A stretch of 64,000 bases of DNA from a virus (IMGVR_UViG_3300017909_004140:43338-107337), one strand, 5' to 3'. Counted from the stretch's first letter, positions 45,377-47,110 are shown. Numbers and translations: made by a program. Notes: generated by a model from the sequence alone, not told the origin.

Positions 45377-45443
45377 CTGTCTAACTACAATTTATAATAA
45401 ATTTTGCATTGCTCAATCCTTAAAAATTTTATAATATATATTT

Positions 45444-45678
45444 ATTGATTGAGTGAGAAGGCTAACGGCATCACTCTGAGCTCGCGACGGTAGGAATGCC
45501 TGCTCTTAGCTGTAAGCAAAACATCAATCGTGCTTGTACCAGACGAAAGGTACAGCGTCATGTGACAACGAGAACAGTCACCGCGTATAGGCCACAAGAC
45601 TGAGTTTAGACGTCTAACAAACCGTGCTCAAATCTTAATGCCTGGGGAGGCGCGAGATACCTCCCCATCAATTTTTTT
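45444..45678 (+). ncRNA. Candidate structured ncRNA 1 (~235 nt)
   Basis: Own promoter TTGCTC-N17-TAATAT (45409-45437); stems GAGTGA/TCACTC, GTAGG/CCTGC, TGTACC/GGTACA, GTGAC/GTCAC; terminator-like TGGGGAGG/CCTCCCCA plus T7. Confidence 0.6.
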
Positions 45679-45713
45679 GTTGCTTATTGCTTAAATTTTT
45701 TATATACTGTTTA

Positions 45714-45885
45714 TAGAAGTTGAGAGGATAACCTTCTAGAAAAAACCTCTTCTAAAGTCTCTGGGCGAGTGCTACGAGTAAGGAAAGCAAGCAAGCCAAC
45801 GATGCGATCTGTATGAGGCAGTGAGCTAGGCACTTAAAACTTAACCTTCGCTAGTACAGAAACTACTCTCGCCTGTGATTTTATA
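45714..45885 (+). ncRNA. Candidate structured ncRNA 2 (~170 nt)
   Basis: Promoter TTGCTT-N17-TATACT (45680-45708); TAGAAG/CTTCTA and GGGCGAG/CTCGCCT pairings; no ORF. Confidence 0.5.
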
Positions 45886-45921
45886 GTTGCTAGATCGTTA
45901 AAAATTTAGTATTATATATTT

Positions 45922-46946
45922 ATAGAAATTGAGAGAGGCATCATCCTCTGGGCTTCGGTTCTCCGCTTCGGCGCGCTTGAACAAAGTGAAAGTTAAAATC
46001 CAGTTAATGATGCAACGGAGTCACGGAATCGGTCTCAGCCTCTTTCTCTCATGGCGCTGAACGTATTTTGTTCTGGCCGCCAGCAAGTCCTGGTCTGATA
46101 GTTCAGATAAGAGCAATTATAGCCACCAGGCAGTTATATGAGTAGTTTCGGTAAGGATAACCTACTTTAAAAAACCTACCTCAAAGTGTGAACAAGTCTA
46201 GATTGAACACACTTTGGTTAGCACTGAGAGTTTCGGCTGTCAGTTCCGCGCCGTTGGCTGTAAAGCTTGATCAGGCGGATTCTTGTCGTGAGATGCAATT
46301 CACGAGTCGGGGAGGAGCTATGCATTGCGCACCTCAAGGTAACTGGCGAGGTTGGTGGCGGTTACACTTTTACTCAGGCTGGACAGGCTAGCGTGTGTCC
46401 TATGTCACAAATCTTTCGAGAGGTCGGAGTAAATTATAGACTTACATTGTTGAGTCACTGAACAGTTGAAGAATGAAGGGCAACTGAATTTTGGAAGCTG
46501 ATCACACCTCAGCGCTTGCGTTGAGCATACTTTAGCAGTGTAGGGGAGAAGCGACGGCTTTTCCAGCTCTCCGAGGGGGAGATGCAGTAGAAACAAGGTC
46601 TATAGCGTTTCGTGACTGCAACCTTATTACGGTTAGCTCGTTTGGGGGGGCTTATACAGTCGAGTAGACAGACTTCATCCACCTGTCGTCTCCTGTATAG
46701 AGATGGTACGAGCGATTAAGCGGCGGGCGAGGTGCTGGCTTAATATTTTGAATTGAACTGGACGCTAACTCCAGCCGAAGCTTAGGCTTGTAAAGTTAGC
46801 AGAGCTAGGTAAGCTGTTACTCATGTGAGGCCTTGCCGCTGAATTAGATTCGGGCGAAAGACAGCGCAACAAAAAGGAGAATCTAGAAAACTTGGGCAAC
46901 CAGCTTTCTAGGAGTAACTGGGCGTAACCTCGTGTTGCGCCCTTTT
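45922..46946 (+). ncRNA. Candidate large structured ncRNA (~1,020 nt)
   Basis: Promoter TTGCTA-N17-TATTAT (45887-45915); more than 15 stems, cUUCGg and GNRA loops, nested long-range pairs; terminator GGGCGTAAC/GTTGCGCCC-TTTT; clearly more GC-rich than the coding DNA; no credible ORF. Confidence 0.75.
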
Positions 46947-47018
46947 GCCTTTTAGCAAAATATAAATTTAGGCAATTTTATACTTGCACGGCGTGGAGAT
47001 TTTTGGTAATATATAATT

Positions 47019-47110
47019 AACAAATTGAGGAGACGCACATTCTGCGGATCTCAACGCCAATTCAAAATTACTATACGTAAATGGAGTCTTGGCAGAAACA
47101 CGTCTCCTCA
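47019..47110 (+). ncRNA. Candidate small RNA 4 or structured leader (~90 nt)
   Basis: Promoter TTGCAC-N17-TAATAT (46984-47012); perfect 10-bp closing stem TGAGGAGACG/CGTCTCCTCA. Confidence 0.5.

Follow-up and report, generated by a model that had tools for sequence, protein, structure and literature searches.

Directly downstream of phoH in an uncultured marine T4-like phage lies a protein-free island of 1.7 kb on the plus strand, which is probably a chain of free-standing structured-RNA genes in a hyperplastic region of the genome. The DNA analysed, referred to as the window, is a stretch of 64,000 nucleotides corresponding to bases 43338-107337 of a 107-kb IMG/VR virus record, and positions given without a contig name are window positions. 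On balance the island is best described as three predicted transcripts, U1 (~235 nt), U2 (~170 nt) and U3 (~1020 nt), followed by the folded leader of a SWIM zinc-finger gene (U4). U1-U3 are most likely free-standing, early-expressed stable RNAs of uncatalogued families. The promoters, start sites and terminators described for the island are consensus matches considered together with their conservation in relatives.

Marine T4-like phages belong to the most abundant viruses of the oceans, and beyond tRNAs, tmRNA and some orphan motifs (manA, wcaG) their RNA genes are hardly catalogued. The island adds covariation-supported families that have no Rfam entry, namely U1, the U2/B family, module A and modules B', D and E, which behave as shuffled cassettes alongside manA and include short candidates (170-235 nt) for tests of expression, structure and assembly.

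Conservation and non-coding nature of the island

The island is flanked by phoH (44558-45376) upstream and by a small ORF with a SWIM zinc finger downstream, all on the plus strand, and the window also carries T4-type tail-fibre homologues and many auxiliary genes. The same island was found directly 3' of phoH in IMG/VR and JGI metagenome contigs belonging to four lineages (72-97% identity), and the order phoH, U1, U2, U3, U4 and SWIM gene was kept in all four. This bore out an earlier reading of the window made from its sequence by itself (the sequence-only reading), which had proposed a dedicated RNA-gene island. The unit sizes that it gave were approximately right, and so was its description of the units as GC-rich and free of ORFs: the GC content was 0.42-0.53 within the units versus 0.31-0.41 in the flanking genes, and no ORF longer than 67 aa was present in 45377-47080.

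Substitutions in the island showed no codon periodicity (p = 0.09-0.48), whereas the phoH control was clearly periodic (p < 1e-12), and among 29-42 indels only 5-6 were multiples of three. The island DNA is non-coding. A decayed or recoded coding region, a self-splicing intron or a mobile-element remnant might be suspected from the length of 1.7 kb and from a GC content above that of the flanks, but such an origin is extremely improbable given the absence of codon periodicity, the mostly non-3n indels and the covarying helices described below. In addition, no Rfam intron or ribozyme family matched the island, and phoH and the SWIM ORF are both complete with no split exons on either side.

The island was missing next to the more distant phoH relatives examined (37-44% identity, L005-L008), it had no DNA match among 50,697 cultured-phage records, and the neighbouring 953-aa ORF had no protein match in cultured phages. 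It was likewise absent from the GTDB species genomes, where a 20-mer from the pseudoknot region of U3 hit one chance site in a Ruminococcus MAG, and there was thus no sign of a host copy. A 17-mer from the core of U1 was found in IMG/VR only within the same clade, apart from two chance matches in GC-rich coding DNA. Motif matches in four further contigs (L027, L030, L031 and L035) were inside ORFs and were discarded as chance.

Predicted structures and the modules of the third unit

U1 (45444-45680) was predicted to fold into a multi-branched structure of about nine helices plus a terminator, with its TTGAG (45449-45453) in the first helix. The consensus fold from alignment A1 contained 54 pairs, with 94.8% of the cells paired, and in 11 pairs both sides had changed; no more than one of 500 column shuffles gave a fold as good, and sliding the register lowered the paired fraction to 34-46%. 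Single-sequence folding of U1 was uninformative (z = -1.25). The body of U2 (45752-45884) was predicted to be a long irregular hairpin ending in a U run. For this body alignment A2, with nine sequences from two clades, gave 32 pairs, 96.8% paired and 13 changed on both sides, and none of 500 shuffles was as good; given that there are only about four independent lineages, some of the covariation counts reported here for the island reflect shared descent.

Within the U2 body every homologue had an unchanged AGUA and then GAA on each of the two strands (45777-45785 and 45853-45861), with variable spacers. This doubled arrangement characterises a pair of sarcin-ricin/loop-E-type internal loops placed back to back, and such loops are often docking sites. 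The doubled loops of U2 would be of this type and might serve in docking. The apical part was the most variable part of U2 and was partly deleted in relative L017.

At the 5' end of U2 (45714-45751) a predicted, covarying H-type pseudoknot was found, of which a second copy is present within U3 (46141-46180). Both copies have a stem of 5-6 bp, a loop that begins with UU and ends with an invariant GGAUAAC, an A run, and a pyrimidine stretch whose partner is the loop. In U2, stem S1 is formed by 45714-45719 with 45733-45738 and stem S2 by 45722-45727 with 45746-45751, with an A-rich loop 3 at 45739-45745, and TTGAG (45720-45724) extends from loop 1 into the 5' strand of S2. The corresponding stems in U3 are 46141-46145 with 46162-46166 (S1) and 46150-46156 with 46175-46180 (S2). 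The copies were compared by eye since S1 was misregistered in the MAFFT alignment (A4). Compensatory changes that kept the pairing were seen in both stems among the U2-type, U3-type and L038-type copies: A-U/U-A swaps occurred at the second and third pairs of S1, and in S2 there were changes from G-U to C-G, from A-U to U-A and from G-C to A-U, with one A-C intermediate in L018.

The pseudoknot resembles the class I preQ1 aptamer (RF00522) in its H-type topology, the 5-6 bp stem, the loop starting with UU, the A-rich 3' tail and a second stem formed from the loop. It differs in having a second stem of 6 bp, which should be stable without ligand, and in its location at the 5' end of an RNA or internally instead of before a gene. 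No Rfam match to the preQ1-I family was obtained, and no ORF follows U2 or the internal copy in U3.

For U3, RNAalifold on alignment A3 predicted 247 pairs, of which 49 showed compensatory change. Judged from its sequence and its counterparts in relatives, U3 is a composite or fusion of at least five modules. Module A (45929-46138) forms the 5' domain, in which the GAG of TTGAG starts a helix P1 by pairing with approximately 46037-46047; alignment A6 (11 sequences from three clades) contained an invariant 7-bp helix and a covarying 4-bp helix, and inspection of the sequences by eye gave the closure of P1, including the pairing of GAG, and a covarying hairpin whose loop is conserved. Module B' (46139-46346) is headed by the second pseudoknot copy (repeat family D4), and the following conserved core segment (46347-46440) was predicted by RNAalifold on A3 to close long-range helices around it. 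Module C (46440-46560) corresponds to a truncated remnant of a slot that holds a manA-like RNA in L015, L028 and L018. Module D (46560-46750) ends in a covarying hairpin (~46712-46742) with a weak U-rich tail and is joined to module E by a window-specific segment of ~50 nt (46751-46800) that is absent from the 95%-identical L009/L032. Module E (46800-46952) contains a hairpin with an invariant 15-nt loop (46838-46852) and then an intrinsic terminator (46920-46942 plus a T-rich tail).

Comparison of sequences indicated that the relatives reshuffle these modules, giving them promoters of their own, deleting them or separating them by cargo genes. In L015, L028 and L018 an extra promoter followed by TTGGG precedes the manA-like RNA inside U3. 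In L017 the manA body has been lost and the promoter, followed by TTGAG, has been kept and now stands directly ahead of module D; the window has no promoter at this slot. In L018 a 235-aa ORF (3304-4011, plus strand) and a promoter-like site are located between modules A and B', and the last codons of this ORF overlap the promoter-like site, which reads into the pseudoknot. A more distant clade has module A at the head of an RNA of its own (RNA-A), ~520 nt long and with its own terminator (L029). In this clade a 245-nt RNA-B opens with the module E hairpin and combines it with the pseudoknot and a U2-like body (L016), and variable antisense cargo genes are found between RNA-A and RNA-B. In L029 this cargo is a 544-aa B12-binding/radical-SAM-like ORF (11711-13345, minus strand), and other contigs of the same clade (L034, L026 and L033) have different ORFs at that place. 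The possibility that the inserted ORFs are intron or maturase genes was rejected in view of the B12-binding/radical-SAM-like character of the 544-aa ORF and its antisense orientation relative to the RNAs. L038 and L039 have A and B in fused form, and in L039 tRNA genes follow immediately. Finally, a viral contig that is otherwise unrelated (L037, 3338-3505) has the module E hairpin, along with a further ~55 nt of similarity and a terminator, and there it follows a putative gp32-like gene (read from translation); its presence there suggested that this module is mobile.

The fourth unit, judged from its position and sequence, is the 5' leader of the SWIM gene and not an RNA gene. The leader (47018-47131, with TTGAG at 47025-47029) was predicted from alignment A5 to form one stem-loop of ~85 nt with a 10-bp closing stem (47026-47035 with 47100-47109), and because U4 barely varies this fold rests on energy and conservation instead of covariation. 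The SWIM ORF (47132-47377; Pfam SWIM, E = 3.5e-4, above its cut-off) starts either at TTG 47132, based on homology with the ATG of the relatives, or at ATG 47120. Hence, where the sequence-only reading had counted four RNA units, several promoter- and terminator-like units were recovered, but the fourth belongs to an mRNA and the third is a chain of modules.

The arrangements above bear on the question of whether the modules are cis-acting leaders, riboswitch-like or acting as mRNA 5' stabilisers, that travel on mobile promoter cassettes and have mostly lost their cargo in this phage. In line with such leaders are the nature of U4, the 235-aa ORF directly after module A in L018 and the variable cargo ORFs between the modules of the distant clade; manA, moreover, was initially put forward as a cis-regulatory motif located ahead of diverse auxiliary genes (Weinberg et al. 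2010, PMC2864571). The first two of these observations also run counter to a reading in which all the RNAs act in trans, and a cis role for some modules is possible. As a general explanation we regard cis-acting leaders as having a low probability. In the four lineages U1-U3 end in a terminator or in a closing stem and U run, after which the next promoter follows and not an ORF, in the distant clade the cargo ORFs run antisense to the RNAs, and lengths of 170-1000 nt with high conservation and no downstream gene argue for products in their own right. Given that no ORF follows U1, U2 or U3 in any of the four lineages, trans-acting particles were preferred over cis switches, and it is unlikely that the RNAs are switches for neighbouring genes. 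By extension, the island argues that manA-type RNAs are also products in their own right and not gene switches.

Terminator-promoter cassettes and the TTGAG segment

The pattern TTGCNN-N17-TANNNT-N8-18-TTGAG had four matches in the 64-kb window (at 45409, 45680, 45887 and 46984), all on the plus strand and all within the island, compared to 0.19 expected by chance, and none of 100 shuffles reached four. The four promoters with a following TTGAG noted in the sequence-only reading were therefore well above chance expectation. The first site, P1 (45409-45437), has a -35 box at 45409-45414 and a -10 box at 45432-45437 separated by 17 nt, and its hexamers and spacing were kept in four lineages while the spacer sequence varied. 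P2 (45680-45708) is located directly 3' of the U1 terminator, P3 (45887-45915) precedes U3, and P4 (46984-47012), ahead of the SWIM leader, was nearly invariant in relatives. The distance from the -10 box to TTGAG was 11-13 nt in the four units. A relaxed scan (TTGNNN, 16-18-nt spacers, [A/T]TG[A/G]G) gave further scattered matches and no second cluster across the 107-kb genome. A generic sigma-70 scan by itself showed no enrichment at the island (8 sites versus 8.5 expected), and the signal thus consists of the extended shared pattern and its conservation in relatives.

In all four units the GAG of TTGAG was predicted to pair with a downstream CUC in the first helix, leaving the two preceding U unpaired, in agreement with the earlier placement of TTGAG at the start of a stem. 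The helices concerned are helix 1 of U1, S2 of the U2 pseudoknot, P1 of module A and the closing stem of U4. The motif itself was not fixed, contrary to the earlier view of a shared signature: in relatives unit 2 has TTCAG, TTCTA or TTTTA, with the partner strand changed to match, unit 1 has TTAAG in L017, and the more distant clade has ATGAG or ATGGG. According to the predicted folds, TTGAG would be two unpaired U and the 5' strand of the first helix of each RNA, and its spread is probably due to duplication of a terminator-promoter cassette whose 3' part includes the first transcribed bases. The segment may help to close and protect the 5' end of the RNA, and would not be a shared functional tag. 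A role as a general promoter element was rejected, as other good intergenic promoters of the genome have no TTGAG. Elsewhere in the window, a divergent-promoter intergenic region contains a perfect-consensus sigma-70-like promoter followed by TTTGAG at an island-like distance (10181-10224, minus strand).

The promoter copies belong to a family of 40-nt repeats that are 63-83% identical. The starts of units 2 and 3, described earlier as 16/17 identical, were recovered as repeat family D1, and the junction of terminator tail and -35 box recurs at three places (repeat family D3). U1 has a terminator-like end consisting of a stem (45644-45666) and then a 7-T run (45672-45678), and U3 has one with a stem at 46920-46942 followed by T-rich sequence; a canonical terminator is absent at U2, which finishes with a long closing stem and then a U run, and at module D.

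These junctions (45644-45708, 45870-45915 and 46920-47012; repeat families D1-D3) are similar to PeSL cassettes, which are terminator/early-promoter elements that mediate module shuffling in T4-type phages (PMC2839356, PMC4122927). As in PeSLs, a sigma-70-like promoter that has a 17-nt spacer comes immediately after a stem-loop and its U run, and the combination is repeated in a variable region. Also as in PeSLs, the cassettes coincide with indels and with module gain, loss, insertion and exchange between close relatives; extra cassettes precede modules B', C and D in relatives, and ORFs are inserted in L018 and L029. The described PeSLs flank small protein ORFs, whereas the island cassettes flank RNA genes, and the island repeat extends ~12-18 nt beyond the -10 box into the transcribed TTGAG. 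By analogy with PeSLs, each unit would be read by the host sigma-70 polymerase from an early-type promoter abutting the terminator of the previous unit, and modules may be shuffled by recombination at the cassettes.

Relation to known RNAs and possible mode of action

A search of the island against Rfam at E values up to 10 gave no family, only two chance-level hits (Lnt and STnc170). This included 6S RNA (RF00013) and bacterial SRP RNA (RF00169). U1 is multi-branched in its consensus fold and not a rod with a large central bubble as in 6S, and the variable apex of U2 is at odds with the conserved apical domain IV of SRP RNA. The earlier suggestion that the units mimic 6S or SRP RNA thus found no backing, either from Rfam or from the consensus folds.

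The broader proposal of four matched RNAs that share a TTGAG tag and form one multi-RNA system, or that are such mimics, is quite unlikely. It draws on the four co-oriented units with their common promoter and TTGAG layout, on the pseudoknot common to U2 and U3, and on a perfect 10-nt complementarity between the 3' side of U2 (45858-45867) and the start of the U3 pseudoknot (46140-46149) that was kept in four lineages. Against it, unit 4 is an mRNA leader and TTGAG varies in relatives. The complementarity is invariant and therefore shows no covariation, and each of the two partners lies within intramolecular helices. The distant clade, in which both parts belong to a single RNA, does not have it, and ~0.2 matches of 10 nt are expected by chance between sequences of 170 nt and 1020 nt.

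A chain of free-standing RNA genes has its nearest counterparts in other structured RNAs of phages. For manA (RF01745, cut-off 55.2 bits) there was no match in the island at E values up to 10 or in the 107-kb genome. In L015 a match was found at 4611-4827 on the minus strand (40.5 bits, E = 1.9e-08), and in L016 another one at 11461-11628, also on the minus strand, scored 54.8 bits, just under the cut-off; the latter has a small ORF on either side and is a short way downstream of the RNA-B unit with its 105-aa ORF. At E values up to 5, the hits listed for the loci of five relatives were limited to manA, tRNA and a single weak one to CrcZ (E = 1.5). Like manA, the island RNAs are structured RNAs of marine T4-like phages; a manA-like RNA fills an island slot in L015 and adjoins the island in the distant clade (L016), where it also looks free-standing. 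Unlike these manA-like RNAs, U1, U2 and modules A, B', D and E have no evident likeness to manA in sequence or fold.

No match to GOLLD (RF01998) or ROOL (RF03087) was obtained in the island at E values up to 10. The resemblance lies in GOLLD and ROOL being large (0.6-1 kb), many-helix, ORF-free phage RNAs with variable peripheral insertions (bioRxiv 10.1101/2024.12.08.627333), often near tRNA genes, just as tRNAs come right after the A+B RNA in L039. U3, in contrast, is a chain of separable modules and not one conserved architecture. A cluster of wcaG, manA and abiF RNAs in the T4-like cyanophage S-CREM1 (PMC9964418) similarly places several structured RNA elements within less than 1 kb of a T4-like marine phage; the families there are catalogued, whereas the RNAs of the window are uncatalogued.

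As for function, we tentatively suggest, as the likeliest possibility though one with less than even odds, that the U1-U3 RNAs might act in trans as stable, compact particles. Such particles might be RNA-only bodies that assemble themselves, in the manner of manA, GOLLD and ROOL, or they might serve host or phage proteins as scaffolds or decoys. Docking could take place at the pseudoknot, at the doubled AGUA/GAA loops of U2 or at the 15-nt hairpin loop that is invariant. It was reported that manA forms RNA-only cages in vitro (preprint 10.64898/2026.07.01.735769), and the analogy with these cages is indirect as the window has no true manA RNA. A more specific and rather doubtful version is that the uncatalogued RNAs assemble, alone or together, into defined higher-order particles during infection in the manner of manA cages, with the same three elements docking and the modules being mixed through the cassettes.

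Apart from the island, the phage invests heavily in RNA genes. At the gathering cut-offs a search of the whole window against Rfam returned only a tmRNA and 7 tRNAs. The tmRNA gene is of the permuted alpha type (8544-9093, minus strand; RF01849, 123.5 bits), and the tRNA genes form clusters at 37403-37556 and 53625-54053.
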